A stretch of DNA of 48,828 nucleotides from a virus (taxonomy: Duplodnaviria; Heunggongvirae; Uroviricota; Caudoviricetes), in IMG/VR virus record IMGVR_UViG_3300045988_154803. One strand, given 5' to 3'. Every line of letters starts with the position of its first letter. Positions within the stretch are counted from its first letter, which is position 1. Below the pieces are notes generated by a model. The model worked only from the letters and a program-made list of their open reading frames with translations. It searched no databases and was not told where the DNA came from. The translations under genes and the position numbers were made by a program. Positions 52-32,921 of the stretch are shown in pieces.

Positions 52-109
52 ATATAATTCTATGACACTTGCCAGAGAGCATCATGCAATTGGATACCTC
101 CATTGCACT
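52..109. repeat. Terminal overlap: identical to 48771-48828 (circular contig closure)
   Basis: Direct comparison of the first post-adapter 58 bases with the last 58 bases of the window. Confidence 0.9.
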
Positions 110-4227: not shown

Positions 4228-4331
4228 AATCCATCATCCCGTAATGTTTCATTAACCCCATCCGTCGGTTGCTGAGTCTCACCCACTGCCAGACGCCAGG
4301 AGCGTTTCTACGAACTAACAGAATCTTTGCT

Positions 4332-5872: not shown

Positions 5873-5897
5873 TTATATAAATATATAATTCTATATA

Positions 5898-5917
5898 CGG
5901 CGGGAGACGTCCCGCCG
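5898..5917 (-). terminator. Hairpin terminator after DUF3560-like gene
   Basis: cggcggga-gacg-tcccgccg perfect 8-bp stem followed by AT-rich palindromic tract. Confidence 0.45.
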
Positions 5918-5928
5918 TAGGCTTACTG

Positions 5929-6996: not shown

Positions 6997-7112
6997 CAGA
7001 TTTCTCCGGTTTAACCAGGGCGGGTATCGCTCGGTTTCGGGTATAACCTTAGGAAATTTTTTCCCACCTGTAAAGCGCTTTTTATATAAATCTATAATTA
7101 TATATTTATAGA
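6997..7112 (-). promoter_or_regulatory. Conserved promoter/5' leader cassette, copy A
   Basis: Near-identical to 16461-16580 and 48667-48785; ends at the start codon with GGAG RBS; contains TATAATTATA palindrome. Confidence 0.6.
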
Positions 7113-7165
7113 TTTTCGATGTTACCGATGTCTACACACCATCAAAACAGCTCAAAATGACACTT

Positions 7166-7543
7166 TTACTCTCTTCGCTTTTTCAAATAGTCGACAACAT
7201 ACGCCCTGGCTTTTGCCAGCTTCCGGCGATACTGTCTGAGACTAAGAGAAAGGGCGTGGGCTTTATCAATATGCGGTGCATTTATGTCGAGGCCCCGAAT
7301 CTCCCACGCCCCGTATTCAATTCGGACAACCAGCGCCGCAGTCTCATCAACTACCGTGAGGGCCGTCACCGCTCCCTCGATACTGGTTTCCAGTGAGTCA
7401 TTTGGTGCGCCGCCCCCTCCGGTAAACTGGCAGCGCGTAACCATCATCATTTCTAACATCGACGCGAAACCGCTACGGGCGTTGCAGCCATTGCGCACCC
7501 ACAGCGCCCATAGCTCAAACAAGCTATCCAGATCGCGTCTCAC
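7166..7543 (-). CDS. Possible Q-like antiterminator (Phage_antitermQ-like)
   Basis: 125 aa; N-terminal LFELWALWV resembles LERWGAWA start of small Q-family proteins (recalled); sits immediately upstream of leader cassette A. Confidence 0.4.
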   Translation of the reverse strand: MRRDLDSLFELWALWVRNGCNARSGFASMLEMMMVTRCQFTGGGGAPNDSLETSIEGAVTALTVVDETAALVVRIEYGAWEIRGLDINAPHIDKAHALSLSLRQYRRKLAKARAYVVDYLKKRRE

Positions 7544-7546
7544 TGT

Positions 7547-7879
7547 TCAGATCTCCCGTATCGTGACGGGATAAAGCGCCTCTACCTGCTTTTTCTTCAT
7601 GATGTAGACGTCTGTTCGCACACCTTTAGTGTCGACACAATCAATCGTCCCATCGTCATAAAACACCATGAAATCAAGTTTATAAACGACACCACCTGGC
7701 AGATGAAAAGGCACCTGCATAAGAAACGTCACAACGCGGCCAGCTTTTCTCAGTAGCTTCAGTTCGCAGTAGTAATCAGCCTCTTTTTTGCTATCAAAAG
7801 AGATATCATCGACAACAGTTTTTTTATTGCCGTATTTGCTTTTCCTGGTCGCTGGTTTGCGAAAGCCGGTATATCTCAT
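7547..7879 (-). CDS. DUF1064 family protein (PD-(D/E)XK-like)
   Basis: SKYGNKKTVVDDISFDSKKEADYY signature typical of DUF1064. Confidence 0.6.
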   Translation of the reverse strand: MRYTGFRKPATRKSKYGNKKTVVDDISFDSKKEADYYCELKLLRKAGRVVTFLMQVPFHLPGGVVYKLDFMVFYDDGTIDCVDTKGVRTDVYIMKKKQVEALYPVTIREI

Positions 7880-8280
7880 TTGGTATCCCCTGGTACTTCA
7901 CCAAGACTAAGATCAAACCCAATTTCGTCTTTAACTGACTGCGGCAACAGCTCCCACGTCTGCGCACACAAAAATTCATCGGTGCCATAACGCTCAACAA
8001 AGCGAGCACAATTACTCAGGGGAGGGTGACGAACGGCAATATGCGGAGGCACGCGCCCACCACCAGGCACAACACCGCGATGATGTGGTGCGCACAACCC
8101 AAAGCTATGGAAGTGGCAATTCTCATCAACGCTGCCGTAATCAGGATCGTGATGTAGCTCCGTCCACAGCTCTGGATTATCAATTTCACGGCCATCAATA
8201 ATGCAAGCTATGCAACCCACGTGAGTGAGCACCGCTTGTATATAAAGTTTCTCTTTCTTCGTTGGTGTACGTCCGTTCAT
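7876..8280 (-). CDS. Cys/His-rich protein, possible zinc-binding HNH-like nuclease
   Basis: CIACIIDG ... HH ... DENCHFHSFGLCAPHH. Confidence 0.35.
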   Translation of the reverse strand: MNGRTPTKKEKLYIQAVLTHVGCIACIIDGREIDNPELWTELHHDPDYGSVDENCHFHSFGLCAPHHRGVVPGGGRVPPHIAVRHPPLSNCARFVERYGTDEFLCAQTWELLPQSVKDEIGFDLSLGEVPGDTK

Positions 8281-8513
8281 CAGCGCCCCTTACCATTGAT
8301 AAAGAGGTTGAACTCGTTGATTAACTGGACATACATGCTTCTGGCCGCGTAGTTCTTTGCCAGCTCTTTACGGGATGAGATCCCGCAAAACTCACGCAGA
8401 ATCACAGAGGCCTCAGAACTGTTTGAAACGTTCTTCCCTGTTTTACTGGTCAGAAAGCGCCAGAATTGGGGATTCTGGCAATGCATCGCAGCACCGCGAA
8501 CATAACTACTCAT
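8280..8513 (-). CDS. Hypothetical protein
   Basis: 77-aa ORF with start/stop overlap to neighbours. Confidence 0.35.
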   Translation of the reverse strand: MSSYVRGAAMHCQNPQFWRFLTSKTGKNVSNSSEASVILREFCGISSRKELAKNYAARSMYVQLINEFNLFINGKGR

Positions 8514-9025
8514 TGATGGCCCCCGTCATTTCTGGTGCTTTTCACCGTGCGGCTTCTTAAAAACCTGCCATCACGAACAACAGACACTTCTCGTTTACCC
8601 AACCTCATTTCACGGCGGTAACATTCAGAAAATGCCTCGTCCGGCATCATATAAATGCGACGCTTCGCCTCCGTATCCAGAAGGGAACGGCTTGGGGTTA
8701 CATATAAAAACGACTCATCAATAGGGACAAAACCACGAGCAAGAATTGCTGGCAGAATGCCAGGAAGAACGCAGAAAACAGCTCCACGATGCAGCAACAT
8801 CTGGTACTCCATGACCTCCGTTATCCCCGTGACTACTGTTACGGTGTCACGTCTGTTACGGCTGGCAACCAGTCGCTGCACACGTCCAATTTTCTGATCT
8901 ACAGATAGATGTTTGCTATCGTTATCAATATGATCGATAACAAACCCTTTAATCGTTTGATCAAGGTAGTGCACCACCTTCGATTGAATCTGGTGATTAT
9001 CACCAAAGAAGGCCAGAATCATCAT
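8510..9025 (-). CDS. Hypothetical early protein
   Basis: 171-aa ORF, operon position downstream of cro-like gene. Confidence 0.4.
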   Translation of the reverse strand: MMILAFFGDNHQIQSKVVHYLDQTIKGFVIDHIDNDSKHLSVDQKIGRVQRLVASRNRRDTVTVVTGITEVMEYQMLLHRGAVFCVLPGILPAILARGFVPIDESFLYVTPSRSLLDTEAKRRIYMMPDEAFSECYRREMRLGKREVSVVRDGRFLRSRTVKSTRNDGGHQ

Positions 9026-9516
9026 TCCTCAAGCCTCCCAAGTGCTGAACGCCGGGCGTTGCTAATCTCCTTATGAATCAGCTCGATATCGCTGGAATCT
9101 TTATTCTTAAACTCCAGCATGGCAATCGCATCACGAACCTCTGAAACGGTTACGTGTGAGTGTTTCCAGCGAGCAATGAATCGCGGACCGCGTAGATTGC
9201 AACGCTCCGCAGGCATCCCCAGCTCAGAGAAAACCGCTTTCAGCCTTGATAAGCAGTTAACAGGGAGATTCCCTTTGATCTTGTTCTGCCGAACCGATGT
9301 GCCATCGCTACGCTGGCGCTGACGTTCGGCAAAATCTGCCGCCCATTGCTGGACGTTAATCCGGCCTTCCGAATACGCCACCAGCAGCGTCAGGTTATCC
9401 GCACGAGGGAATCTCTCGAAGCGATACCAGGCACCAATCAGTGATGACGTAAAGCCAAACTTTCTGGCAACACCAATTTGGCCTCCATTCTCGTCAACCC
9501 ACTCCTGAAAGGTCAT
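9022..9516 (-). CDS. Cro/YdaS-like HTH regulator (N-terminal domain) with C-terminal extension
   Basis: GGQIGVARKFGFTSSLIGAWYRFERFP resembles YdaS/Cro-type HTH; divergent from CI across operator cluster. Confidence 0.5.
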   Translation of the reverse strand: MTFQEWVDENGGQIGVARKFGFTSSLIGAWYRFERFPRADNLTLLVAYSEGRINVQQWAADFAERQRQRSDGTSVRQNKIKGNLPVNCLSRLKAVFSELGMPAERCNLRGPRFIARWKHSHVTVSEVRDAIAMLEFKNKDSSDIELIHKEISNARRSALGRLEE

Positions 9517-9689: not shown

Positions 9690-10346
9690 ATGAAAAGCAA
9701 CGACGAGAACATCAAGAAAGAAATAGGTCTGCGCATTCAGACTCTACGGAAACAATCCGGCATGACTGCCGGAGATCTCCAGCAAGTCACTGGAATAGGC
9801 TTAAGCACCTTGCAGAACTATGAGGCCGGATTAAGACAACCATCTATACCTGCCATCAAGAAAATCGCGCACGCCCTGAAAGCATCAGCGCCTTATATCG
9901 CGTGCTTAACAGATAACCCGTTCCCACCCCAGAATACTAACGCTCCTGTTATTCCTGGGCTTGTAGCTATAAAAAATGACATAGCATCGCACGCCGGAGA
10001 AAAGCCAGTGCTGGCGATAGAACAGGAGATTCTACGAAGCAAGAACATCAACCCATCGTCTCTGTCAGTTCTCCAGAGCAACGATGAGTTAATGTCACCA
10101 ACAATATCCCCAGGCTCCCAAGTCCTGATTAATACAGACGATACAGAGATTCATGAGGGGATCTATGCCCTTGAAGACAGAAATGGCCCGGTTGTTTTGA
10201 GGCACTGTAGAGTCATACCGGGTGACAATGCTGTTATGCTGTCAACCGAAAGGGATGCTGAAATGAACACTAAGCATCTGAATAACGAGGAATTTAAGCG
10301 TTATAAAGTTCTGGGCCGCGTAGTTAGTGTTGTCAACTGGTTATGA
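9690..10346 (+). CDS. CI-like phage repressor (XRE HTH + S24/LexA-like C-terminal domain)
   Basis: N-terminal IGLRIQTLRKQSGMTAGDLQQVTGIGLSTLQNYEAG; C-terminal domain alignable to S24 fold. Confidence 0.8.
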   Translation: MKSNDENIKKEIGLRIQTLRKQSGMTAGDLQQVTGIGLSTLQNYEAGLRQPSIPAIKKIAHALKASAPYIACLTDNPFPPQNTNAPVIPGLVAIKNDIASHAGEKPVLAIEQEILRSKNINPSSLSVLQSNDELMSPTISPGSQVLINTDDTEIHEGIYALEDRNGPVVLRHCRVIPGDNAVMLSTERDAEMNTKHLNNEEFKRYKVLGRVVSVVNWL

Positions 10347-10830: not shown

Positions 10831-10842
10831 CCCGCTTATATG

Positions 10843-10948
10843 ATTATAGATTTATATAATTATATAAAACGCTTTTCATCAGCCAAAAAGTTGGTTATGC
10901 TTACCTCGTTCTATAAATATAGATTTATAGAATTATATAACCAAACAC
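10843..10948. promoter_or_regulatory. parA upstream region with AT palindromes (candidate centromere/operator)
   Basis: Perfect 16-bp palindrome TTATATAATTATATAA at 10843-10858 and a related repeat CTATAAATATAGATTTATAGAATTATATAA. Confidence 0.5.
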
Positions 10949-11617
10949 ATGGAGTCTCGACAAATGACTATCTCTGTAGGTATTTTCAACGGAAAAGGCG
11001 GCGTAACCAAATCAACAATTGCCCGTGCTTTAGCAGTTGCTTATGCAAAGGCTGGCTGGAATGTATGCCTGATCGATATGGATGTGCTTAACGGAACGGT
11101 AACGCGTTGGGTACAACGCAGAATGGCCAACAATATCGAACCAGCAATCGCGGCGCAGCCGTGCGGCACACCATCACAAGTCCAGAAAATCATCGAATCA
11201 GAAGTATACGACCTGGTTATCGTTGATGGCGGTGCCTACGCATCTGAATCAGTACCGAAGCTCTCTGAATTTCTGGATATGGTTATTTTGCCAACCAGAT
11301 TCTCTACCGATGACCTGGAAACCACCGTTAACACAGCTCACGGCATCGTTAAAAAGGGTGTACCAATCAAGAAAATTTGCATGGTGTTTTCCGGCGCGGC
11401 TGAAAACGAAGCTGACTATATTGAAGCCCAAGAGTACCTGGCTAATACGCCATACTTTGTTGTCGATAAGTACATTCCCCACAAGCCAGCTCTGAGCAAA
11501 GCTCAGGATAAGGGCTTAAGCCTCATTGAGTGCTCATACGTTGCGCCACGCAAAAAGGCAGACGACGTTATTCAGGGGATTATCAACCAGCTTGAGGCTC
11601 TGACTACTGCCGCGTAA
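10949..11617 (+). CDS. parA: ParA-family partition ATPase (small, type Ib-like); likely start at 10964
   Basis: Deviant Walker A GKGGVTKST; ~217 aa without N-terminal HTH. Confidence 0.85.
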   Translation: MESRQMTISVGIFNGKGGVTKSTIARALAVAYAKAGWNVCLIDMDVLNGTVTRWVQRRMANNIEPAIAAQPCGTPSQVQKIIESEVYDLVIVDGGAYASESVPKLSEFLDMVILPTRFSTDDLETTVNTAHGIVKKGVPIKKICMVFSGAAENEADYIEAQEYLANTPYFVVDKYIPHKPALSKAQDKGLSLIECSYVAPRKKADDVIQGIINQLEALTTAA

Positions 11618-11629
11618 TATATAATTATA
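11618..11629. repeat. TATATAATTATA palindrome between parA and downstream RHH gene
   Basis: Perfect 12-bp palindrome. Confidence 0.6.
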
Positions 11630-11660
11630 GTTTTATAGATTTATATAAGAGGGGATACAC

Positions 11661-11909
11661 ATGGCCGCACCATCAAAACCACCAAAGAAGAACAGCAAAG
11701 GCGTACCGCCATCGATCGAACAACCGCAGGTTTTCGACCCGACTGAAACGCCAACCAGAACCAAATCAGGTGGGGCACAAATGGCGTTTAACGTCGACCC
11801 TGAATTTAAACGCGAGTACAAAACGTTCGCCAGCTCAATGGATATGTCATTGAAAGAAGTGCTGACAAAATCTTTTGAGTTACTCAAGGCTCAATACAAC
11901 CAGAAGTAA
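11661..11909 (+). CDS. Small ribbon-helix-helix-like protein, ParG-like centromere-binding partner
   Basis: 82 aa; basic disordered N-terminus then AFNVDPEFKREYKTFASSMDMSLKEVL pattern. Confidence 0.55.
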   Translation: MAAPSKPPKKNSKGVPPSIEQPQVFDPTETPTRTKSGGAQMAFNVDPEFKREYKTFASSMDMSLKEVLTKSFELLKAQYNQK

Positions 11910-11938
11910 GAGAAGGTGACGGCCTCCAGCGCCAACTG

Positions 11939-12121
11939 TTGGCCGTCGCGACACAACAAGGGGAATTTGTTATGTCCGAGCAACAATATACACGGTTACT
12001 AAAAACTCGTCTAATAGACCTCAAACGGCTGCAAGCTGGCCGCTTATTTGCCCTGCTATCCACCAGGCCAGAATGGGTACGTGAAGCAGTTCTGAAAGGC
12101 TTAATGCGCTCCAGCGTTTAA
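11939..12121 (+). CDS. Small hypothetical protein
   Basis: 60-aa ORF following partition genes. Confidence 0.3.
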   Translation: MAVATQQGEFVMSEQQYTRLLKTRLIDLKRLQAGRLFALLSTRPEWVREAVLKGLMRSSV

Positions 12122-12129
12122 ATTCAACC

Positions 12130-12153
12130 ATAAAAAAGCCCCCGAAGGGGCCT
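12130..12153. terminator. Hairpin terminator (U-run on minus strand, A-run on plus)
   Basis: gcccccgaaggggc stem-loop flanked by A6 on plus strand. Confidence 0.5.
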
Positions 12154-12725
12154 AATCGCTACTTGCTGCTAATGTTTATCGTCACATTCAGAGCGTTATC
12201 AGTAATCTTCCAACCCTCCCCATGTGGCGTAAACAAAGCTCCAGTAACAACGATAAAAATACACATACAGTATTTTTTCATTGTATGGCCCTTACAGGCC
12301 GTTTCACGGCATCCCCACCGACGAAAACAACGCGAGAGCAAGCACGGCTGCTTGTGCTTGCATGTACGGCAACGGAGAATCCTCCCCTAAAGTCGGTGCC
12401 CGGGTGCGAATCGGCGGGAAGGTCCACAGGTATTTTACGATTATTTTAAGATTAGTAATAGGAAAGAAATTAAACGAAAAAACTCGTTTATTTTCACAAA
12501 ATCAGTAACCTACCCACAATCTGTGAGTTTGCAGGCACAACAAGAACCACAATTTTTTGAAGCATAATAGTGGACTATTATTACCTTTTGGGTAAAATTA
12601 ACTTGCTGCTTGTGCTTGCGTGGTTGTTTATACAACAACGTAATGCTGAAAGGACCGCGAATCCGATCAGCACGAAAGAACCGTCCTCAATAGGGCGGTT
12701 TTTTTGTTTCTGCCTACCAATAAAC

Positions 12726-12738
12726 CCACGCTATGTGG
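12726..12738. promoter_or_regulatory. Fourth CCAC-N5-GTGG operator-like palindrome
   Basis: CCACGCTATGTGG abutting candidate -35 TTGTCT. Confidence 0.5.
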
Positions 12739-12773
12739 TTGTCTCTGTTAAAATCCCGCCGTATTGACATGAA

Positions 12774-12873
12774 TGCGCCATTGGTGGACACTTTCCGAGC
12801 CGTAGCAAAATCTACGGCCGGGATTGGAACCCCGATAATCATCATGGCGCATACCGCGTTAGCGGTTTTTTTA
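12774..12873 (+). ncRNA. Candidate small RNA (~100 nt) ending at intrinsic terminator
   Basis: Candidate promoter TTGTCT-N17-TATTGA; internal hairpin ccgtagcaaaatctacgg; terminator ccgc-gtta-gcgg + T7 at 12854-12872. Confidence 0.3.
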
Positions 12874-13037
12874 TGCGTAAAGCACTGCTACACCCAAATT
12901 ATGGTGGGGCGTGCGGGGGAGTCGTAAGACTCGCCGGATTCCATGGTGACCGGTAGTTCCAACCCTGTACGTCTCACCACCCAATGATTGGAACCAGACG
13001 GTGGTGAGTATCCTTAACCTTTAAGGGAACTATCACC

Positions 13038-13229
13038 ATGACAAACTTACCCCATGACTATTACGTCAACCTCGTAAAGATCCTTCTCAAGAAAGCCTCA
13101 TACGCCGATAAACTCCGCCTGGCTGAAATCATCGAGCGCGAAGCTATGCGCATCGCCAGCAACGATAACGCTGTTTCTGACGCAAAAATCTCCCTCGTAA
13201 CCAAAGTAGTTATGGGAGGTACAAAATGA
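13038..13229 (+). CDS. Small protein upstream of antirepressor
   Basis: 63-aa ORF with stop/start overlap (ATGA) to antirepressor. Confidence 0.4.
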   Translation: MTNLPHDYYVNLVKILLKKASYADKLRLAEIIEREAMRIASNDNAVSDAKISLVTKVVMGGTK

Positions 13230-14368
13230 AAACGCTTCCGACCGTTAACACCCTACAGCCTATCCTGCATAACCAGATCCCCGTTATCACTAGTGAACTT
13301 CTGGCGCAGTTATACGGAACAAAAATCAAAAACATTTCTGATAACTTTCTGAACAACACGACGCGATTCATAGCCGGAAAGCATTACTTTAAAATTGAAA
13401 AAAACGAATTACGCGAGTTCAAGAACAGACCTGAAACAATCGGGTTAGTTGGTAAAAATGCCCGCTCCCTAATTCTCTGGACCGAACACGGAGCAGCCCG
13501 TCACGCCAAAATGCTCGAAACCGATCAGGCTTGGGATGTGTTCGAAAAACTGGAAGACTGCTATTTCAACCAGAACGCACAAACGGCCGCGACCGTAACC
13601 GTCTCACCAAACAATGCTCGTGAGGTTGTCGATACGCTCAACGCCAAACCGATGTTTTACATTAAAGTGTGCAACAACGAGCCACTCACAACCTCAGCCG
13701 ATGTTGCCCAGGCATTCAGCACCACAAACAATTCCATCGTTATGGCCATCGATGCGTTACGCATTCCTCGCACAGCTGCGGCGCGTCATTTCTTTAAAGA
13801 GCAACGACCGTTGGAAGGAAGCGACCGCGAAATAACAATCTATCGCATGACAAAAGACGGATTTACCTTGCTCATGGAAAGTATCGACGGTCCAGGCGTG
13901 AAGGATATCAAGCTGGCCTACATTGAAGCCTTTAACGCTATCAGCAGCGTGTTAAAAACACAGTACGAGCGCGATCTGGCTAAACGACTGTACCAGGAAA
14001 AAACGATTATCCGCGCGGCAACAGAGCATAATCGGCTATTAACGGAACCGAACTACAGGAAGGAACTAATCAAGGAGTTTGACAAGGCAACAGGGAAAAC
14101 CAAAGCGGCGCTAAGTCTGCCAGCAATGACTCAGGAAAATGTGATATCAGCCTTACTTCTTGATCTGCTCAGAAACGCCAGAGCACTTATCAGCTTTGAC
14201 GAAAACCTGAATCCTCAGCTCAAGCTACTACCACCGACAGGCAAAGTAGTCGACCAGGCTGATCACAACAGCATACTCAGCGTACTGGATGCAAACCTGC
14301 CAGCCAGGACACTACAGGATCTGATAAAAACATGTGCTGATAAGCTGGCACAGAAAAGCAGACCATAA
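13226..14368 (+). CDS. ant: Antirepressor-like protein (ORF6N/KilA-N-type N-terminal domain + Rha-like domain)
   Basis: N-terminal IPVITSELLAQLYGTKIKNISDNFLNNTTRFIAGKHYF; central PLTTSADVAQAFSTTNNSIVMAIDAL. Confidence 0.7.
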   Translation: MKTLPTVNTLQPILHNQIPVITSELLAQLYGTKIKNISDNFLNNTTRFIAGKHYFKIEKNELREFKNRPETIGLVGKNARSLILWTEHGAARHAKMLETDQAWDVFEKLEDCYFNQNAQTAATVTVSPNNAREVVDTLNAKPMFYIKVCNNEPLTTSADVAQAFSTTNNSIVMAIDALRIPRTAAARHFFKEQRPLEGSDREITIYRMTKDGFTLLMESIDGPGVKDIKLAYIEAFNAISSVLKTQYERDLAKRLYQEKTIIRAATEHNRLLTEPNYRKELIKEFDKATGKTKAALSLPAMTQENVISALLLDLLRNARALISFDENLNPQLKLLPPTGKVVDQADHNSILSVLDANLPARTLQDLIKTCADKLAQKSRP

Positions 14369-14600
14369 CTACAAGGGGCTACGGCCCCTTACTCTTTTCT
14401 CTCTTATCAACACCAGAGACTTTCTGAAAATCCTTTCGAATAGCGTCAGCGTCACGCGCCAAGCCCATACTCGAACGTGTCGCCATATGACGAAAATGAT
14501 CAACTGCCGGAAACAAAGAAATAATGGACCCAATAGCTTGCAGCAAACTCGCTTTTCTACGCATCATAATTCCACCATAACCGATAACCACCCTTCAGAC

Positions 14601-14627
14601 ACACCCCCCCTCCCCCCATACAGGGTG
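14601..14627. repeat. Homopolymeric tract C7-T-C6 (G7-A-G7 on minus strand)
   Basis: acaccccccctccccccatacag read directly. Confidence 0.9.
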
Positions 14628-15103
14628 CCCTTTACCGGAGTTCCGGCCCCTTCTCAAAAGCATCAAAAAAAGCTCGAGATCGAGTACCGGAACTCATGCC
14701 ACCAGATAGCTCCACATCGTTTCCAATGCTTCGCCGCCGTGTGCGCCCTGTGGCCCACAATCATGCCATTGGTCGTCTGATATACCTTCTTCTGCTCATA
14801 GAGCACAGGCGAGTTGTCGCACTCCTGCCTTTCTCAGACTCGACTTAGTTTAGATCGCTGTTCCTGGCTTGCGTCAGCACACTTTCCCCTTGTACGCATA
14901 CCCGCGCGCAACTTCGCCCAAAAACACCGAACCCAACGAAGTGGCAAAGACAACGACGCGAGCGTGAGTCTGAAATGGGCACCAGTAAAAAAGGGGTTGC
15001 AGGCGCAAAAAGATTTGATTATCTTTAGACGCAAGAAAGCCGCCCCAATCAAGAGGTGTCTTTTTAAATCCAGCCTACCAAGCAAGATTTAAATTTCAGA
15101 CTG

Positions 15104-15130
15104 AAAACCGCCCGGCAAGGCGGTTTTTGT
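15104..15130. terminator. Bidirectional hairpin terminator
   Basis: ccgcc-cggcaa-ggcgg with A-run before and T5 after. Confidence 0.55.
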
Positions 15131-15176
15131 CTTTCTGGCGCTTACATTACACCACCATAAAACGATCCGTAAAGGA

Positions 15177-15449
15177 TCATTTGATCCCTTGTTCCAATTC
15201 TGCCGACACTTTAACCTTTTCCCATACAAGGGTTTGCAGCCTTAACAGAATCGCATCTTTATCAAGGTGTGAAAGATCCTTAACCATATCGTCAAACGAC
15301 AGAACGCGAATGGCCATCTCAATGACCCTCGGCGGCTCCCCCTTCTCATATCGCTTATATGTAGCCAACGATATCCCAAACTCTTCGGCTGCTCGCTCCT
15401 GCGTCCAGTTCATCCCACGACGCCATAATTTCAATTCGTAACCCGTCAT
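15177..15449 (-). CDS. XRE-family HTH transcriptional regulator
   Basis: LKLWRRGMNWTQERAAEEFGISLATYKRYEKG. Confidence 0.6.
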   Translation of the reverse strand: MTGYELKLWRRGMNWTQERAAEEFGISLATYKRYEKGEPPRVIEMAIRVLSFDDMVKDLSHLDKDAILLRLQTLVWEKVKVSAELEQGIK

Positions 15450-15550
15450 TACATCCTCTACCTTTCCCTAGATATTCAATAAATTAGACATAGCCACTCA
15501 CGACAAAATAAGATGTATTAACAATCCAATCTTTAGGCTTTAGGTAAAAA

Positions 15551-15976
15551 ATGAGTTCATCTGCTTTTGTCACCGTGGTCACTGGTGTAAGTGTTTTTGT
15601 TCTAGGCCAACTCATCGTCAAAGGAGCTATTGAGCCTTACATTTCATTCAGGGAACAACTAGGGAAAATATCCAATCTGTTATTATGTAACCAAGCAAAA
15701 ATAGTGAATCCTGGCTCGAACTTAAAGCCAGAAATCATTCATGATCTAAAAGATTCCGCAGCACAGTTAATGGCGAAATATTCCACTTTACCTTTCTATA
15801 TCAAAAAGTTACATATCGGCTTTCGTCTTGTTCCATCAGCCACCGAGATTCTTGGGGCAGCTCAAAATTTGAACTATATAGCGTCAATACATGAAGGTAA
15901 GACTGGGGAGAATCCATCTAAGCATCTCGAAGAGATTGGCCATATGCTCAAAATACCAACTACCTATTCAAGCTAA
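15551..15976 (+). CDS. Membrane-anchored hypothetical protein
   Basis: 141 aa; N-terminal hydrophobic helix AFVTVVTGVSVFVLGQLIV; divergent from HTH regulator. Confidence 0.45.
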   Translation: MSSSAFVTVVTGVSVFVLGQLIVKGAIEPYISFREQLGKISNLLLCNQAKIVNPGSNLKPEIIHDLKDSAAQLMAKYSTLPFYIKKLHIGFRLVPSATEILGAAQNLNYIASIHEGKTGENPSKHLEEIGHMLKIPTTYSS

Positions 15977-16045
15977 CCCAATGTAAGTTATCGGCTTGCC
16001 CCACAATAAGTTATCTATCTTCAAACGCCCCCTATATTAACACTC

Positions 16046-16070
16046 GCAAAGTGTCAAAATGACACTTTGC
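16046..16070. terminator. Perfect 11-bp-arm palindrome between convergent genes
   Basis: gcaaagtgtca-aaa-tgacactttgc. Confidence 0.5.
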
Positions 16071-16079
16071 GCATTGTGT

Positions 16080-16460
16080 TTACTTAACGAGGAATAAAAA
16101 TGGTTTATTGTTCGGCGGTGTAATCGGGGCTGGCTCGCTTTTGCTCATGCGATCAGTGTACCAGGCCAACTCCTTGTCAAAGTAAGCCTGATTAAAATAG
16201 GCCATGAATGTAGTTTCAAATCCATAACGACCGCTAATACGCAGCATCTGATTGCCGTTCTCTGTTTCCAGATATACCTGGGCACGTTCCTGATTCTCCT
16301 TCAGCCAGGTTAAAGCCTCATCGCATGAGGACACACGATACTCATCATCGTAGCAGTCATCGATGCGGCTTGAGGAAGAACGGCAAATCACGCCAACAGA
16401 ACCAGCCAGGATAGTTTGAATTTTAAGGAAAGCGTTTTTGCGGATTTTAATCATGCTCAT
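16080..16460 (-). CDS. Hypothetical protein (first gene after leader cassette B)
   Basis: 126-aa ORF starting exactly at end of conserved leader. Confidence 0.5.
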   Translation of the reverse strand: MSMIKIRKNAFLKIQTILAGSVGVICRSSSSRIDDCYDDEYRVSSCDEALTWLKENQERAQVYLETENGNQMLRISGRYGFETTFMAYFNQAYFDKELAWYTDRMSKSEPAPITPPNNKPFLFLVK

Positions 16461-16580
16461 CGGGTTATCTCCGGTTTAACCAGGGCGGGTATCGCTCGGT
16501 TTCGGGTATAACCTTAGGAATTTTTTTCCCACCTGTAAAGCACTTTTTATATAAATATATAATTATATAATTCTATGAGC
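16461..16580 (-). promoter_or_regulatory. Conserved promoter/5' leader cassette, copy B
   Basis: Near-identical to copies A and C; palindrome TATATAATTATATA at 16556-16569. Confidence 0.6.
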
Positions 16581-16582
16581 AC

Positions 16583-16607
16583 AAAAAAGCCCCTTTGCAA
16601 CAGGGGC
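16583..16607 (-). terminator. Intrinsic terminator after higA-like gene
   Basis: Minus strand gcccc-tgttgcaaa-ggggc followed by T6. Confidence 0.55.
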
Positions 16608-16623
16608 TTATCATTCGTTCTGA

Positions 16624-16923
16624 TCAGATGTTAAACGCTATTCGTTTTCCTGTGGGAAGCTCAACATCCAGGCTTAATTTGCCTCCCATAGCTTCAACGT
16701 AACGCTTTAATGTCGCCAGCTTTAAATCATTTCCGCGCTGCTCCAGCTTTGTTACTGCTGGCTGGCTTATACCCATCGCCTCAGCAACCTGTTTTTGTGA
16801 TAACTGGAGTTCTTCACGCATCATCTGCAAGCCGACCTCAAGAATCATCTCATCTGCCATTTCTTTAATTCGCGCCTGGCTTTCCGGTGAACGGCTGGCA
16901 ATCGCCTCATCTAATGTTCTCAT
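16624..16923 (-). CDS. higA: HigA-like XRE HTH antitoxin
   Basis: QKQVAEAMGISQPAVTKLE HTH; immediately downstream of and overlapping toxin gene. Confidence 0.65.
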   Translation of the reverse strand: MRTLDEAIASRSPESQARIKEMADEMILEVGLQMMREELQLSQKQVAEAMGISQPAVTKLEQRGNDLKLATLKRYVEAMGGKLSLDVELPTGKRIAFNI

Positions 16924-17276
16924 TACTTGCTCTCCAGTGTGTTCAGATGTGCTGCAAACTCATCCTCAGCTATACGCACCAGTTTTTCATAAAACCGCTT
17001 ATCGTTACTTTTGTCTCCTGCACAAAGAACGATGGCCCGGCGAATCGGATCGAACGCATAAAAGGCTCTTATCGGACGGCCAGAAAACTGAACGCGAAGC
17101 TCTTTCATATTTTTGTACCGAGAACCTTTTACGGTATCGGCATATGGCCTGGGTAACTCAGGTCCGTAAACCTGTAGCTTTTTCAAATCAGCCAAAACCT
17201 TTTCCTGAAGAGCGTCTTCTTGCTCATTTAGCCAGTCGTCAAATCGCTGGCTAAAAAGTACCGTCCACATGCTCAA
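16923..17276 (-). CDS. higB: HigB-like RelE/ParE-superfamily toxin (Gp49-like)
   Basis: 117 aa; toxin-first arrangement with HTH antitoxin; sequence pattern recalled from Gp49/HigB family. Confidence 0.65.
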   Translation of the reverse strand: MSMWTVLFSQRFDDWLNEQEDALQEKVLADLKKLQVYGPELPRPYADTVKGSRYKNMKELRVQFSGRPIRAFYAFDPIRRAIVLCAGDKSNDKRFYEKLVRIAEDEFAAHLNTLESK

Positions 17277-17325
17277 TCCTATAACCTGTAGTTTATATCA
17301 CTAACTATATAACCTGTGAGTTATA
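17277..17325. promoter_or_regulatory. Direct repeats TATAACCTGT upstream of higB (candidate autoregulatory operator)
   Basis: cctataacctgtag ... tatataacctgtgag. Confidence 0.45.
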
Positions 17326-17514
17326 ATTTCAAGAAAAACGGGGCTATTTAACATAATGGACGTTATCGGCACCACCGGATCACCGTTCATTGTCGGATCT
17401 AAAAAATCCGCGCAAAAGATCATGTTTTCCTGGGCGTTTTCCACTGTTTTTTATGTTGCTTATTTGTTAATGAAATCTCGTTTTCAGTTTCGCCTCATTT
17501 TCGACACGAAAGCC

Positions 17515-17805
17515 CTATTTTTGTGACTTTACTCCTGGCATATGGACTTCCCAGCGACGAATCCCCATAGCTGCGCAAAAATCAGCCACATAATTCAATC
17601 CCGCCCATTCGCGGATACCACCACGGGCTTTTTCAATGAAAACGGCAATCCCTTTTTTATTGAGAGCAAAAAGCCGCCAGCTTTTTGTCACTTCGTCCTG
17701 GGTAGCCACAACACAAGTGAAAGCTCCCATGCGATACAGGTCCAAGAACTCTTTGCGTGTTTTGCGTACAAGTTCCATAACAAACCTCATATTTGCATGT
17801 TTCAA
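17515..17805 (-). CDS. Hypothetical protein
   Basis: 96-aa ORF adjacent to origin region. Confidence 0.35.
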   Translation of the reverse strand: MKHANMRFVMELVRKTRKEFLDLYRMGAFTCVVATQDEVTKSWRLFALNKKGIAVFIEKARGGIREWAGLNYVADFCAAMGIRRWEVHMPGVKSQK

Positions 17806-18101
17806 ACATCTGTTTTGTTATCAATGAAGATTAACCCTAACCCAGCGAAGTAACACAGCAGCGCCCAGGCTGCATACGGAATGCTGGATCTGGATGTGGA
17901 CTCCTTTAACATCTGCCAGTTGCGAACATTGCGACTATCTTTTAAGCCTAGTTTTTTGGCCAACTGCGAGCCGCTCATTCCGGTCAGGCCAATGACTGCC
18001 CGAACTTCTCCACATGTAGGAGATTCCCATTCATCCGCTTTTTTTAAACAAGCCGGATTCAACATTTTTAAAACAGTATCTTTATCCATAACCATCTCCA
18101 T
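17802..18101 (-). CDS. Hypothetical protein with HTH-like segment and hydrophobic C-terminus
   Basis: VIGLTGMSGSQLAKKLGL; C-terminal AAWALLCYFAGLGLIFI. Confidence 0.35.
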   Translation of the reverse strand: MEMVMDKDTVLKMLNPACLKKADEWESPTCGEVRAVIGLTGMSGSQLAKKLGLKDSRNVRNWQMLKESTSRSSIPYAAWALLCYFAGLGLIFIDNKTDV

Positions 18102-18732
18102 TTATTATATCTACGATGGTAGGAAATCTTTTCCTATGTGGCAATAGAAATTTACTACATTGCGTATAAGACAAGTTTTCTATGTCTAATAGGAAATGAT
18201 GTTTCTTACGTTTTGTCGCGTTCTGATGGCTACTGTGTGCGTATTTATCGACGTTTATTGATAAGGCCCGCCCCTTCCTCCTGCAAAGCTCGGCCGTAGG
18301 CCTTATTTCGGCCTTATATAAATTGATTTTGTATAGTTCGAAACGCGCCGTTTCGAAAAGGATGATCAGGCTGCTCCATGCCTCCGGCAAGTGCCGGAGG
18401 AGGTATATTTGAGCGTAGCGACTCGAACCGGCGCGAGCTTTAGCTCGCTGCAAGGGCGAACATATTCACAGGCAAAGCCTGCGTAAGTTAAATAAAGAAA
18501 GTCTTAATAAAAGAAAGTGATTTTGCATTTATTTGTTTAGTGCATCTATTATAAAAAACCATTTGCATATACATATCAAAACTGTGGATAACTTTATTAG
18601 CCGATGCCTGTAAAGACGATATTTTTGCTGTGTTCAGGTTTAGAGAAAATTAATTTAGACTATTTTTTGAACAGATATTTTATTGCGACGTAGATAATCC
18701 TCCGGTAAAACCGGATTCATCATTCAGGTGGG
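18102..18732. other. Candidate plasmid replication origin (AT-rich, DnaA box, GC hairpins) downstream of repA
   Basis: DnaA box TGTGGATAA at 18583-18591; hairpins cgaaacg-cgc-cgtttcg, ctccggca-agt-gccggag, gcgagc-ttta-gctcgc; no credible ORF. Confidence 0.5.
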
Positions 18733-19713
18733 TTAATGTTGGAGTGATTTCCAGGTCTTTCTTAGCCTGTTATAACGCTGCTCAACGAGGGATCGTAAAT
18801 ATGCAAGGTCAGCACCTGGATACATGCCATCAGCAAATTCCTGGCTAACCTCTCTAGTGATTTGATGACGAAGTTCGGCCTCTCCCTTTTCCTGAACAAG
18901 ACGCGCAGCTCTCTCCGCTGCTTTCTGTTTTGCCTTTATCTCTCTGGCCGTCTTCCTCTGACGCCATACATTCTCCATCTGCTCCTGAATAACAATACGC
19001 TTATAATCAGCCTCCGTTATCGCTTTTTTAAGCCGTTCGCTATTCTTCGCATTGAAGTAATTAAGTTTCTGGCTAACCGCACGTCTCCATGCTTGTTCAG
19101 TAATACCAACGATTTCCAGCAGTTGATCACGAATCTCTATTTTCGCTGGCCAATACTGTTTATTCACCCGATCCCAGCGACGTTCATAATCAATAAAACC
19201 TAACGCTTTCAGTTGCGACAACGCCCTTGTACAGCGCGTTATAGACTTGTTCCCAGCTTCGGATACGGTAGACAGGCCGCAAAAATCAGCCAACGCCTCA
19301 GCACTGGCCAGAACCCGCTTAGAAATGATGTTTACATGGTGCAAAATCGCAGCAATCACAGCATTAATCGCCCGACGACGATGCTCGTTTATCCGGCGTT
19401 TCCGCTCTGACGGTTGATTAACGTAGAACGCAACCTCACACGTAAGATCACGACCATTAATGCGCTGTAAAGCATCAGATAACACCAGCGGCAGCTTGTG
19501 CGTATGGTGCTTTGGAGGCTGGAACTCCGGCGACAAATTACAAACGTAAGCTGAACGTAGAGACGGCATTGGTCTATCCATATGTTCGCTCTTGCGTCCA
19601 CGGAAAACCAACGTATAATGGGAGTTGTCGAGGCGCCCATGGATTGTTTTTGTTGGTTTTCCGTGGATGTCGCAAGAAGCCCGCAGATTTATCTGCGGGC
19701 TTTTTGTTTCCAT
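18733..19713 (-). CDS. repA: IncFII-type RepA replication initiator (RepA1-like); true start possibly internal
   Basis: RRRAINAVI...GLSTVSEAGNKSITRCTRALSQLKALGFIDY aligns by eye to R1/R100 RepA1 block RRRAIDALL...GLATESAAGKLSITRATRALTFLSELGLITY (recalled). Confidence 0.8.
   Translation of the reverse strand: METKSPQINLRASCDIHGKPTKTIHGRLDNSHYTLVFRGRKSEHMDRPMPSLRSAYVCNLSPEFQPPKHHTHKLPLVLSDALQRINGRDLTCEVAFYVNQPSERKRRINEHRRRAINAVIAAILHHVNIISKRVLASAEALADFCGLSTVSEAGNKSITRCTRALSQLKALGFIDYERRWDRVNKQYWPAKIEIRDQLLEIVGITEQAWRRAVSQKLNYFNAKNSERLKKAITEADYKRIVIQEQMENVWRQRKTAREIKAKQKAAERAARLVQEKGEAELRHQITREVSQEFADGMYPGADLAYLRSLVEQRYNRLRKTWKSLQH
19679..19710 (+). terminator. Plus-strand intrinsic terminator antisense to repA 5' region (candidate CopA-like RNA 3' end)
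   Basis: gcccgcag-atttat-ctgcgggc followed by TTTTTGTTT. Confidence 0.4.
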
Positions 19714-19894
19714 ATCTGGTCATTTTCCAACCAGACACCCACAATCATAACCACGTTACGTGGTTTTCAGAGAACTCTACCACAACACTTTCGGTCATGC
19801 ACGAAGTCTCTCACTGATCGAACGATAATCCACCAGTAAAAGGATCTAAATTGGATCTCGTTTTGCGAGCATCATACTACTGGCCTAACTCCAG

Positions 19895-20449
19895 TCAATG
19901 ATTCCCAGCCGGAAACCTGCGGTAAAGCGTGGATAAGGTAACATCGAAGATAATCGCTATCCGCTTACGTGAAACACCATTCGCAATAAGCCTTCCGATC
20001 TGTTCCCATTGCTCTGGTGCCAATTTTGAGCGGCGTCCTCCTATCCTGCCGTTAGCCCTTGCCACCGCCAATCCTGCACGCGTTCTTTCAATCATATTTT
20101 CCCGCTCCATCTCTGCGACTGCACTCAGCATCGTGTAGGCAAAGCGGCCAATTGAAGTGCTAATTTTTATCCCTTCCGTAATCGAAATAAACTCAATGTT
20201 GTTTGATAAAAAATGGTTAAGTAAATCAACAAGATGAATCAGAGAACGCCCCATTCGGTCCAGCTTCCAGACAATAACCGTATCGCCCGGCCGTAACACC
20301 TTAAGTAGCTTATCAAGTCCTGGTCGTTTTGATTTAGCACCGGATATTTTATCTTCAAAAATCTGGTCACATCCTGAACTCCTGAGCGCCTCCAGTTGTA
20401 ATTCCAAATTCTGGTCAAAAGTTGACACCCTCGCATAACCATATTGCAT
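19895..20449 (-). CDS. Gin/Hin/Cin/Pin-family serine DNA invertase
   Basis: 184 aa; YARVSTFDQ catalytic Ser motif, WKLDRMGRS, C-terminal HTH; alignable along full length to Mu Gin as recalled. Confidence 0.95.
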   Translation of the reverse strand: MQYGYARVSTFDQNLELQLEALRSSGCDQIFEDKISGAKSKRPGLDKLLKVLRPGDTVIVWKLDRMGRSLIHLVDLLNHFLSNNIEFISITEGIKISTSIGRFAYTMLSAVAEMERENMIERTRAGLAVARANGRIGGRRSKLAPEQWEQIGRLIANGVSRKRIAIIFDVTLSTLYRRFPAGNH

Positions 20450-20513: not shown

Positions 20514-20539
20514 TTCGCAAAAACCTCGGTTTACAGGAA
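20514..20539. repeat. Left inversion crossover site (gix/hix-like, inverted orientation)
   Basis: Reverse complement reads TTCCTGTAAACCGAGGTTTTTGCGAA; inverted repeat of right site. Confidence 0.8.
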
Positions 20540-20563
20540 ACGGTAAACCGAGCCGGGAACGCC

Positions 20564-21400
20564 GTGCAAAAAAATGGCGATACCTTGTCCGGTGGACTTA
20601 CTTTTGAAAACGACTCAATCCTTGCCTGGATTCGAAATACTGACTGGGCAAAGATTGGATTTAAAAATGATGCCGACAGCGATACTGATTCATATATGTG
20701 GTTTGAAACAGGTGACAACGGCAATGAATATTTCAAATGGAGAAGCCGCCAGAGTACCACAACAAAAGACCTGATGACGCTGAAATGGGATGCACTAAAT
20801 ATTCTTGTTAATGCCGTCATTAATGGCTGTCTTGGAGTTGGTACGACGAATGCACTAGGTGGTAGCTCTATTGTCCTTGGTGATAATGATACCGGATTTA
20901 AACAGAATGGAGACGGTATTCTTGATGTTTATGCTAACAGTCAGCGTGTATTCCGTTTTCAGAATGGAGTGGCTATTGCTTTTAAAAATATTCAGGTAGG
21001 GGATAGTAAAAAGTTCTCGCTATCCAGCTCTAACACATCCACGAAGAATATTACCTTTAATTTATGGGGTGCTTCCAACCGTCCAGTGGTTGCAGAGTTA
21101 GGCGATGAGTCCGGATGGCATTTCTATAGCCAGCGAAATACAGATAACTCGGTAATATTTGCTGTTAATGGTCAGATGCAACCCAGCAACTGGGGGAATT
21201 TTGATTCCCGCTATGTGAAAGATGTTCGCCTGGGTACGCGAGTTGTTCAATTGATGGCGCGAGGTGGTCGTTATGAAAAAGCCGGACACACGATTACCGG
21301 ATTAAGAATCATTGGTGAAGTAGATGGCGATGATGAAGCCATCTTCAGGCCGATACAAAAGTACATCAATGGCACATGGTATAACGTTGCGCAGGTGTAA
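20564..21400 (+). CDS. Alternative tail-fibre C-terminal variable domain (promoterless; fused to constant N-terminus after inversion)
   Basis: Frame open from crossover site; C-terminus ...RPIQKYINGTWYNVAQV parallels expressed fibre C-terminus ...RPIQYCINGTWYNAGSI. Confidence 0.75.
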   Translation: MQKNGDTLSGGLTFENDSILAWIRNTDWAKIGFKNDADSDTDSYMWFETGDNGNEYFKWRSRQSTTTKDLMTLKWDALNILVNAVINGCLGVGTTNALGGSSIVLGDNDTGFKQNGDGILDVYANSQRVFRFQNGVAIAFKNIQVGDSKKFSLSSSNTSTKNITFNLWGASNRPVVAELGDESGWHFYSQRNTDNSVIFAVNGQMQPSNWGNFDSRYVKDVRLGTRVVQLMARGGRYEKAGHTITGLRIIGEVDGDDEAIFRPIQKYINGTWYNVAQV

Positions 21401-21403
21401 GTT

Positions 21404-21931
21404 ATGCAGCATTTAAAGAACATTAAGTCAGGTAATCCAAAAACAAAAGAACAATATCAGCTAACAAAGAATTTTGATGTTATCTGGTTATGGTCCGAAG
21501 ACGGTAAAAACTGGTATGAGGAAGTAAATAACTTTCAGGACGACACCATAAAGATTGTATACGACGAAAATAATATTATTGCCGCCATCACCAAAGATGC
21601 CTCCACGCTTAACCCTGAAGGTTTTAGCGTTGTCGAGGTTCCTGATATTACCGCCAACCGACGTGCTGATGACTCAGGTAAATGGATGTTTAAGGATGGT
21701 GCTGTGATTAAGCGGATTTATACGGCTGACGAACAGCAACAACAGGCCGAATCACAAAAGGCCGCGTTGATTTCCGAAGCTGAATCAGTCATCCAGCCGC
21801 TGGAACGCGCTGTCAGGCTGAATATGGCAACAGACGAGGAACGCACACGACTGGAAGCATGGGAACGCTACAGCGTTCTGGTCAGCCGTGTGGATACGGC
21901 AAATCCTGAATGGCCACAAAAGCCTGAATAA
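21404..21931 (+). CDS. Tail fibre assembly chaperone (alternative orientation)
   Basis: Paralog of 21960-22493 product ([22 protein letters not shown] vs [22 protein letters not shown]). Confidence 0.75.
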
Positions 21932-21959
21932 AAATTAAGGCCCGATAGCGGGCCTTGTT

Positions 21960-22493
21960 TCATTCTGGTTGTTCTGGAAACGTTACTGGCAGGCTGGAGG
22001 TGTCTGTGGATTCGACCTTCTGCGCATAGAGCATCCACTCGGTTAATTTTTGTTTATTCTCGTTGGAAATGATACCCAGCCGTAGCTGTGAGTCCCATAG
22101 CTGGGTTTTATCCCTGACGAGCTGTAGCAGGCTTTGCTTTTCATTTTCCGCTTGTTGCCTCTGCTCTTCCTCGGTATAAGTTCGCTTTATCACTACGCCA
22201 TCTTTGAACAACCATTTCCCCGAAATATCAGCCCGGCGATTTGCTGTAATATCAGGTAATTCAACGACGCTTGCGCCTTCCGGATTAATTGCTGAAACAT
22301 CCTTTTCAATACAAATAATAACGCCGTTATGGTCATAGACCATTTTCAAAGTGTCTGGCTGGAAATTCTTTTGTTCCTCATACCAGTTTTTTCCATCATC
22401 TGAATAAAGCCATTTGATGTTAAATTGCTTTGTTAGCTGGTATTGCTCTTTTGTTTTAGGGTTGCCAGCAGTAATGTTTTTTAAGTGCATCAT
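21960..22493 (-). CDS. Tail fibre assembly chaperone (currently expressed orientation)
   Basis: Immediately downstream of tail fibre gene; Tfa-like sequence. Confidence 0.8.
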   Translation of the reverse strand: MMHLKNITAGNPKTKEQYQLTKQFNIKWLYSDDGKNWYEEQKNFQPDTLKMVYDHNGVIICIEKDVSAINPEGASVVELPDITANRRADISGKWLFKDGVVIKRTYTEEEQRQQAENEKQSLLQLVRDKTQLWDSQLRLGIISNENKQKLTEWMLYAQKVESTDTSSLPVTFPEQPE

Positions 22494-22495
22494 CG

Positions 22496-27941: not shown

Positions 27942-27943
27942 AA

Positions 27944-31938: not shown

Positions 31939-31943
31939 TAGTA

Positions 31944-32374: not shown

Positions 32375-32383
32375 TTTGTCACC

Positions 32384-32905: not shown

Positions 32906-32921
32906 AGCAACCTCCTATTAT

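Follow-up and report, generated by a model that had tools for sequence, protein, structure and literature searches.

Introduction

Phages that live in their hosts as plasmids have been textbook material since P1. The P1 prophage, the plasmid form of a myovirus of ~94 kb, carries a RepA replicon with DnaA boxes, a par operon, an addiction system and the Cin invertase. Its RepA binds iterons, its partition system is of type Ia (ParA/ParB-parS), it possesses Cre-lox and phd-doc, its DNA is packaged by a headful mechanism, and in its immI region a C4 antisense RNA lies upstream of the antirepressor gene. Here, we describe a computational analysis of the IMG/VR virus record IMGVR_UViG_3300045988_154803, a stretch of 48,828 nucleotides from a tailed virus of the Caudoviricetes (referred to as the window), and in particular of positions 10,843 to 19,713, a block of plasmid-style maintenance genes. 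With a probability that we put at about 0.9, the window represents a single entire circular genome (48,719 bp) of a temperate phage with a contractile tail and a plasmid lifestyle, and the block is its plasmid kit.

The element works like P1 but is no P1 relative. It has in common with P1 and P7 a rep gene, a par locus, addiction, C4-Ant immunity, an invertible fibre segment and the lifestyle of a myovirus with a plasmid prophage, whereas DNA similarity to these phages is confined to the tail fibres, where it reaches 95% identity to P7 over ~1.4 kb. The element is half the size of P1 (48.7 kb versus ~94 kb). P1 RepA is unrelated to the IncFII_repA initiators, P1 partition belongs to type Ia, and P1 addiction relies on phd-doc. 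The large terminase of the element is lambda gpA-like, in contrast to the headful packaging of P1, and while P1 resolves its dimers by Cre-lox, the element apparently leaves resolution to the host XerCD recombinases.

Ten phage-plasmid groups have been typed, namely AB_1, cp32, N15, P1_1, P1_2/D6, pCAV, pKpn, pMT1, pSLy3 and SSU5; the enterobacterial myovirus groups among them have genomes of 72-125 kb, and the N15 group, at 40-66 kb, consists of linear siphoviruses (PMC12977533 Table 1). A 48.7-kb enterobacterial myovirus lies outside all ten, set apart by size, morphology and relatedness (PMC12977533 Table 1). It lies outside the groups tabulated in PMC11652158 as well, and the accessions of its family are absent from the tyPPing supplements. 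Outside the family, the nearest characterised virion relatives are the Vibrio myophages X29, phi 2, Rostov 7 and vB_VpaM_XM1, whose large terminase (TerL) is 63-65% identical and whose genomes, of 41-46 kb, have no nucleotide similarity to the maintenance block. Judged from its sequence, the element unites virion, packaging and lysis genes with a plasmid initiator and its predicted origin, and has extrachromosomal relatives that lack an integrase, the combination expected of a phage-plasmid.

Results

The window closes on itself and its relatives are extrachromosomal

The first 51 nucleotides of the window (1-51) are an Illumina Nextera i5 adapter plus index (AGATCTACAC-CTATTAAG-TCGTCGGCAGCGTCAGATGTGTATAAGAGACAG), which is contamination of the assembled contig and not biology. 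Directly behind this adapter begins an exact 58-bp terminal overlap (window 52-109 = 48771-48828), so that the contig closes into a 48,719-bp unit without host flanks. The overlap indicates a 48,719-bp molecule that is either a closed circle or else permuted or concatemeric. The window is collinear with the circular plasmid NZ_AP025749.1.

We examined where related sequences lie in 5,426 complete genomes of E. coli. At least 80% of the block is present in 58 of these, always on records of 39-94 kb, and the virion module (25000-45000) is present in 72, with 97 of its 98 places on plasmids. The one non-plasmid place is almost certainly NZ_CP035831.1, a 31-kb record labelled 'extrachrom'; its apparent chromosomal location was discarded when a further search gave small records alone. 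The records with the block or the virion module are all of 31-94 kb and extrachromosomal, that of strain ATCC 25922 included (71 of the 72 virion records were viewed). On chromosomes, the only matches to the block are to a 300-bp Ant fragment that it shares with lambdoid prophages. The initial annotation, made from the letters alone, had proposed an extrachromosomal prophage and named an integrated copy as the finding that would speak against it; such a copy was sought in these genomes and none was found.

Family members are circular plasmids of ~47-50 kb from E. coli, E. albertii and E. fergusonii, among them NZ_AP025749.1, CP099184.1, NZ_CP023368.1 and the ATCC 25922 plasmid NZ_CP009073.1. 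They are 96.5-99.6% identical over the block, and 45 records in PLSDB cover at least 80% of it. The family has been deposited more than 100 times as plasmids and three times as phages: the Yersinia phages vB_YpM_39, 41 and 44 (OR545053-55), with Y. pestis EV76-CN as the deposited host, are 97-99% identical genome-wide. No paper describing the isolation of these three phages was found, and searches by accession, phage name and keyword found no published name or description of the ~48-kb family, which is already deposited, yet unnamed in the papers found. The 'pseudolysogenic' Y. pestis phage vB_YpM_HQ103 (MZ420230) was considered as a further relative and dropped, as it is absent among the matches listed.

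The gene order CI - parA - immI - higBA - Xer - ori - repA - invertase - fibres - tail - head - terminase is the same in the circular plasmids and Yersinia phages named above. Mosaic variation affects the early region 3204-4978, the tail-fibre tips, 46758-47336, the Ant allele and insertion sequence (IS) insertions; NZ_JBRERJ010000004.1 lacks the invertase and the invertible segment, and NZ_CP032086.1, a 94-kb ATCC 25922 record, contains the element three times, which is probably a multimer or an assembly artefact. The RepA/ori/ParA set is kept even in a divergent Salmonella relative, and PHROGs v4 already has full-length families for the proteins of the element.

The closure of the contig, the extrachromosomal location of the relatives, the phage deposits and the profile matches of RepA and ParA all speak for the extrachromosomal prophage, and the sequence evidence supports a free circular plasmid state of this phage without chromosomal insertion. 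The initial annotation had further described a contiguous plasmid-style maintenance block. Every element that it named is present, but an immunity module (12799-14368) and open reading frames (ORFs) with a helix-turn-helix (HTH) or without assignment lie among them; because the C4-antirepressor module falls within it, the block is better described as maintenance interleaved with immunity. Its right-hand end at 19713 needs correction, being the ATG of an over-long 326-aa repA ORF, with the repA start nearer 19581. The profile searches that had been recommended for RepA, ParA and HigB/HigA were run and matched all four: RepA, ParA, toxin and antitoxin.

No integrase was found, and the virion genes are intact

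The following features bear on recombination and integration.

19895-20449, minus strand: serine invertase of the Gin/Hin/Cin type (Pfam Resolvase 151 bits, and HTH_7)
956-1031, minus strand: complete tRNA gene with a CAU anticodon, called tRNA-Met by ARAGORN and tRNA-Ile by PGAP in relatives

PGAP annotates no integrase in two 99%-identical plasmids, and the window stretches that those plasmids leave uncovered hold only ORFs of <231 aa without recombinase domains, in agreement with the earlier statement that the small serine invertase is the sole recombinase. The absence of an att-like tRNA fragment likewise stands, since the sole tRNA is a complete gene. The invertase serves the tail-fibre segment and has no part in maintenance. 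Gix-like inverted repeats (20520-20574 and 23406-23460) bracket this invertible segment (20520-23460), the alternative tail-fibre ends share 95-98% identity with their counterparts in Mu, P7 and P88, and the relative pE400634_48, which has no invertase, is still a circular plasmid.

In relatives that are 99-100% identical, PGAP lists terminase, portal, protease, capsid, sheath, tube and tape measure, together with baseplate, fibres, holins and endolysin. The ORFs of the window virion module are intact, and the virion and lysis modules thus appear as complete as had been claimed. We considered whether the element is instead a phage-derived cryptic plasmid, one that replicates and segregates, forms no infectious particles and carries its phage genes as remnants. 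Defective derivatives of the family do exist: pCREC-544_3 (NZ_CP024829.1) is a 32-kb circular deletion form that is missing parA and the repressor as well as the early and lysis genes, and some relatives have IS insertions. For the window, however, this explanation is unlikely, given that its 20-kb virion module, with intact ORFs, is 100.0% identical to that of NZ_CP023368.1 and 98.8-99.7% identical to those of dozens more, that three phage genomes of 97-99% identity have been deposited with a Y. pestis host, and that lysis, packaging and immunity modules are all present.

RepA belongs to the IncFII_repA superfamily

The temperate phage-plasmid that we favour requires a plasmid replicon, which the right-hand part of the block is predicted to provide.

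18733-19581, minus strand: repA, encoding an IncFII_repA superfamily initiator of 282 aa, or of 278 aa from 19569 (PGAP coordinates in relatives)
18480-18720, minus strand: oriR-like origin with a DnaA box, a ~90-bp conserved core with ATGCA(A/C) repeats, and an AT-rich tract
19596-19712, plus strand: candidate countertranscript, antisense to the repA leader, with a long hairpin and a rho-independent terminator

RepA matches Pfam IncFII_repA (PF02387) with 151 bits and NCBIfam RepA_IncFII_LM with 232 bits (cut-off 70), and it fails the IncFII equivalog TIGR03474 incFII_RepA (77.7 bits versus a cut-off of 446.9). The assignment to an IncFII-type RepA consequently holds for the IncFII_repA superfamily but not for IncFII in the strict sense. 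The 326-aa ORF starting at 19713 was dropped in favour of the 278/282-aa form because a 7-nt indel in the Salmonella relative breaks the frame upstream of the repA start; PGAP starts lie at the equivalents of 19581 or 19569. In PLSDB, RepA sequences of at least 95% identity occur in 59 records, and those listed are all ~47-52 kb and belong to this phage-plasmid family. The next RepA, 84% identical, is from a syntenic Salmonella Concord plasmid, and further ones, at most 47% identical, are found on Buchnera plasmids and on 43.6-kb plasmids of Enterobacter, Citrobacter and Klebsiella. By these comparisons the RepA clade appears to be essentially private to the family in PLSDB.

The sole perfect DnaA box (TTATCCACA) in 48.8 kb lies at 18583-18591 on the minus strand, ~145 bp downstream of the repA stop, in a region with a GC fraction of 0.41 (18001-19000). 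Boxes with one mismatch occur at the level of chance (13 found versus 13.6 expected), which ruled out box enrichment as evidence for an origin and places the weight on the uniqueness, position and conservation of the perfect box alone. The box reads TTATTCACA in the Salmonella relative, the conserved form being TTATNCACA, and a core of ~90 bp is kept there, comprising TTAT(C/T)CACA, three ATGCA(A/C) repeats and then the AT-rich tract. The AT-rich origin with a DnaA box of the initial annotation is borne out by this unique, conserved box in an AT-rich stretch. A set of GC-rich hairpins (CCTCCGGC..GCCGGAGG, TTCGAAACGGCGCGTTTCGAA) at 18340-18470, 120-250 bp past the origin core, is also kept in the Salmonella relative and might act as a priming site or terminator, or encode a small RNA (sRNA).

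The RNA predicted at 19596-19712 has a minimum free energy of -68 kcal/mol and a z-score of -10.35. Its terminator and hairpin loop are invariant between the window and the Salmonella relative, and two pairs of its stem are changed on both sides (G-C to A-U and A-U to U-A), as read by eye from this two-sequence alignment. These properties give the RNA the layout of a copy-number countertranscript, for which it is a candidate. Identification as a CopA-type RNA through Rfam was abandoned: only sub-threshold matches to unrelated leader and sRNA families were obtained, the best to Thr_leader (31 bits versus 55), and the weak Thr_leader and trpB matches merely reflect the hairpin-plus-terminator shape.

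The replicon resembles those of the IncFII plasmids R1 and R100 in its PF02387 RepA, in an origin downstream of repA that consists of a DnaA box followed by AT-rich DNA, and in a structured countertranscript over the repA leader. It differs from them in that TIGR03474 is missed, Rfam gives no CopA match, no tap-like conserved leader peptide was seen in the repA leader comparison, and there is no space for copB.

A putative partition locus with iterons around parA

The left-hand part of the block contains a putative partition locus.

10836-10948, no strand assigned: array of 8-bp TTATAGAT/TTATATAA-type repeats (iterons) upstream of parA, with 8-nt spacing; candidate centromere and operator
10949-11617 (PGAP start 10964), plus strand: parA, a small ParA ATPase without an N-terminal HTH, annotated as 'ParA family protein' in relatives
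11617-11656, no strand assigned: second set of the same 8-bp repeats, between parA and the partner gene
11661-11909, plus strand: ParA partner gene (82 aa, phrog_6024), presumed to encode a centromere-binding protein

The predicted ParA ATPase is confirmed by Pfam matches above cut-off to CbiA (47.9 bits, cut-off 25.4), PF10609 ParA (37.3 bits, cut-off 27.1) and MipZ, and by a deviant Walker A motif, KGGVTKS. It scores 78 bits with NCBIfam ParA_partition, under the equivalog cut-off of 180. The partner is less well defined. A small ribbon-helix-helix (RHH) partner had been proposed, and a gene for a small protein is indeed present and well placed after parA, where it is kept in the Salmonella relative too, but the RHH part of the proposal found no profile or fold match: Pfam, NCBIfam, phmmer, a profile HMM against the PDB and Foldseek on an AlphaFold2 model returned nothing specific. 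That model has a mean pLDDT of 65, with 40 disordered N-terminal residues and helices at 47-59 and 62-79. Those homologues that were found share at least 79% identity, which makes for a shallow alignment. As modelled, the 82-aa protein is no more than compatible with a ParG-like RHH fold.

The closest described arrangement is ParF/ParG of TP228, a type Ib partition system. In both, a small Walker-type ParA without HTH precedes a small basic protein, disordered at the N-terminus and with two helices at the C-terminus (as modelled for the window), and short repeats with an 8-bp period flank the operon. Unlike the TP228 proteins, the partner has no sequence or fold match to ParG or RHH proteins, and ParA itself is only weakly similar to ParF (4dzz, E 3e-4). 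Of the marks of a type Ib system, the locus possesses the deviant-Walker-A ATPase and the iterated repeats, and the predicted secondary structure of the partner is compatible with RHH. The iterons that flank parA are candidate centromere and operator sites.

A candidate Xer site adjoins a possibly exchanged higBA cassette

Between the partition locus and the origin lie two candidate addiction modules and a candidate site for the host Xer recombinases.

16624-16923, minus strand: higA-like antitoxin gene (Pfam HTH_3 40 bits)
16923-17276, minus strand: higB-like toxin gene (Pfam Gp49, HigB-like, 81 bits)
17346-17523, minus strand: cer/psi-like XerCD site, with its core at 17346-17373 (GGTGCCGATAA-CGTCCA-TTATGTTAAAT) and presumed accessory sequences that reach to 17523 on its XerC side
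12132-12427, minus strand: ryfA/timP-like RNA (Rfam RF00126 138.5 bits, gathering 80)
12159-12281, minus strand: 40-codon hydrophobic ORF inside the ryfA/timP-like RNA, beginning MKKYCMCIFIVVTGALF; candidate type I toxin
12604-12708, plus strand: candidate antitoxin sRNA of the TimR type, complementary to the ryfA-like RNA through its 5' end and ending in a terminator hairpin

The toxin gene lies upstream of the antitoxin gene with a 1-nt overlap, which is the higBA gene order, and together with the two Pfam matches it upholds the HigB/HigA-like pair of the initial annotation. The candidate cer/psi-like Xer site next to it has a core that departs from the dif arms at 2 positions, compared with 5 mismatches in the best of 30 shuffles, and that is kept in three relatives, of which the Salmonella one has identical arms and a single spacer change. 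Unannotated DNA of other E. coli plasmids is 87-89% identical to 17322-17523, and this similarity over ~150 bp on the XerC side matches the expectation for cer-type accessory sequences.

The higBA cassette, which adjoins the XerD arm, is 95% identical to one on the Y. pestis plasmid pPCP1, and this cassette accounts for 52 Yersinia plasmid matches. Homology to pPCP1 breaks off within the Xer spacer; past that point pPCP1 carries a cer-type XerC arm of its own. The sequences suggest an Xer-site-bounded exchange of modules between the phage-plasmid and pPCP1, a small ColE1-type plasmid. The possibility that the phage is normally an integrated prophage, inserted through XerCD at a dif-like site in the manner of integrative mobile elements exploiting Xer (IMEX, e.g. 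CTXphi) or through an unrecognised integrase, and that the circle is an excised or replicating intermediate, would account for the dif-like core with its 6-bp spacer and, as an excised form, for a self-closing contig, but is very improbable when there are 0 true chromosomal copies in the 5,426 E. coli genomes versus 72 extrachromosomal ones, the RepA/ori/ParA set is conserved even in the divergent Salmonella relative, the Xer core adjoins ~150 bp common to other plasmids, as it would at a cer-type site, and a separate cer-like core occupies the equivalent place on pPCP1.

A resident plasmid phage may be further stabilised by a second module. In the described TimP/TimR arrangement, a ryfA toxin RNA is accompanied by a divergent, complementary sRNA (PMC7667032). 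The window has the corresponding parts, as far as sequence can define them: the ryfA RNA, the hydrophobic ORF within it, and a divergent sRNA whose complementarity to the ryfA-like RNA takes the form of an 18-nt direct repeat (12347-12364 / 12605-12622). This candidate TimR-like antitoxin is preceded by a promoter-like site (12571-12598) and has a fold z-score of -5.75. The ryfA/TimP-type module may act as a second addiction system, one that the Salmonella relative lacks, to judge from how short its intergenic distance is at this place. Two overlapping small ORFs on the minus strand (17515-18101), one of 99 aa with a weak HTH match and then one of 96 aa, lie in the interval from the Xer site to the origin; they are kept in relatives and might encode another regulator or toxin-antitoxin pair.

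A P1-type immunity module lies within the block

The interleaved immunity genes, and a repressor candidate just outside the block, are as follows.

12799-12872, plus strand: isrK-like RNA (Rfam RF01394 72.5 bits, gathering 50)
12897-12984, plus strand: C4 antisense RNA (Rfam RF01695 84.3 bits, gathering 45)
13038-13229, plus strand: 63-aa ORF at the place where P1 would have icd, likened to Icd by position
13226-14368, plus strand: antirepressor gene ant (Pfam ORF6N 74 bits, Phage_pRha 47.5 bits)
9690-10346, plus strand: CI/LexA-like repressor candidate, divergent from the leftward early operon

The C4 RNA lies directly upstream of the 63-aa ORF, which overlaps ant by ATGA. On this predicted organisation, 12799-14368 is an antirepressor module of the P1 immI type (c4-icd-ant), carried by a phage that is not P1-like. 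In relatives, PGAP splits or truncates the ant gene. The repressor candidate matches Pfam HTH_3 with 43 bits and an RstR-like NCBIfam model, and scores 18.5 bits with Peptidase_S24, under the cut-off of 23.3.

Other genes of the element

Upstream of the genes for the small and large terminase lies an AT-rich, gene-free stretch of ~550 bp (43235-43790); as the Yersinia phage records begin in it, it is likely to be the cos region. Beside the terminase, on the minus strand (42644-46524), are three proteins with ParB/Srx N-terminal domains, one of which PGAP calls methyltransferase-domain-containing in a relative, and an MT-A70 methyltransferase is encoded at 60-647, also on the minus strand. These ParB/Srx-domain and MT-A70 proteins are not partition proteins and probably represent accessories of DNA modification or packaging. 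The early operon (3194-9516, minus strand) offers no more for replication than a DUF3560 protein whose C-terminus has a primase-like PHROG match, along with a Ref nuclease and a DUF1064 protein.

Discussion

Several observations weigh against residence as a plasmid, or against the parts assigned to it. Virion DNA or replicating lytic DNA would also give a self-closing contig. The cer/psi-like Xer site (17346-17373), the TimR-like antitoxin (12604-12708) and the centromere and operator sites flanking parA are candidates proposed from sequence inspection only. Rfam gives no CopA match in 18000-20000, even at E values up to 10, and the 82-aa partner has no Pfam, NCBIfam, PDB or fold match for a centromere-binding role or an RHH fold. 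Finally, no dedicated lytic replication module was identified, the early operon being without a recognisable initiator or helicase.

From the family assignments, the circular closure, the location of the relatives and the deposited phage genomes, all of which are observed, we infer the following mode of maintenance for the phage-plasmid. RepA and host DnaA would open the adjacent oriR-like origin, while the structured antisense RNA over the repA leader would throttle RepA synthesis, by analogy with IncFII and IncB-type control. ParA and its 82-aa partner, acting on the iteron arrays that flank parA, would place copies in the daughter cells. Dimers would be resolved by host XerCD at the cer/psi-like site (17346-17373), in which case, we propose, no phage recombinase is needed. 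Plasmid-free segregants would be penalised by the higBA-type pair and probably by the ryfA/TimP-type type I module too. The C4 RNA would control the translationally coupled small ORF and antirepressor, and together with the CI-like repressor would set the lytic switch.

How far the family should be regarded as a type of its own is a separate matter. We put forward only tentatively, as a view less likely to hold than to fail, that the ~48-kb family is a distinct, common and unnamed phage-plasmid type of Escherichia and relatives, outside the ten typed groups, which would combine a near-private RepA clade, host-XerCD dimer resolution at a cer-like site, Xer-bounded exchange of addiction cassettes with small plasmids (Y. 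pestis pPCP1) and P1-style C4 immunity on a non-P1 virion chassis. The significance of the finding is modest: a phage-plasmid was correctly recognised from raw sequence, an element type known since P1, and no new kind of biology is opened. The family is nonetheless frequent in clinical, animal and environmental E. coli, occurring in ~1% of complete E. coli genomes, and the reference strain ATCC 25922, a global quality-control strain, is among its carriers. Because it is absent from the typed phage-plasmid groups, typing tools and plasmid/phage classifiers probably mislabel it. The block, with RepA and its antisense RNA, ParA and iterons, an Xer site, two addiction modules and C4-Ant immunity, might offer a small model of the way in which a tailed phage builds up a life as a plasmid.

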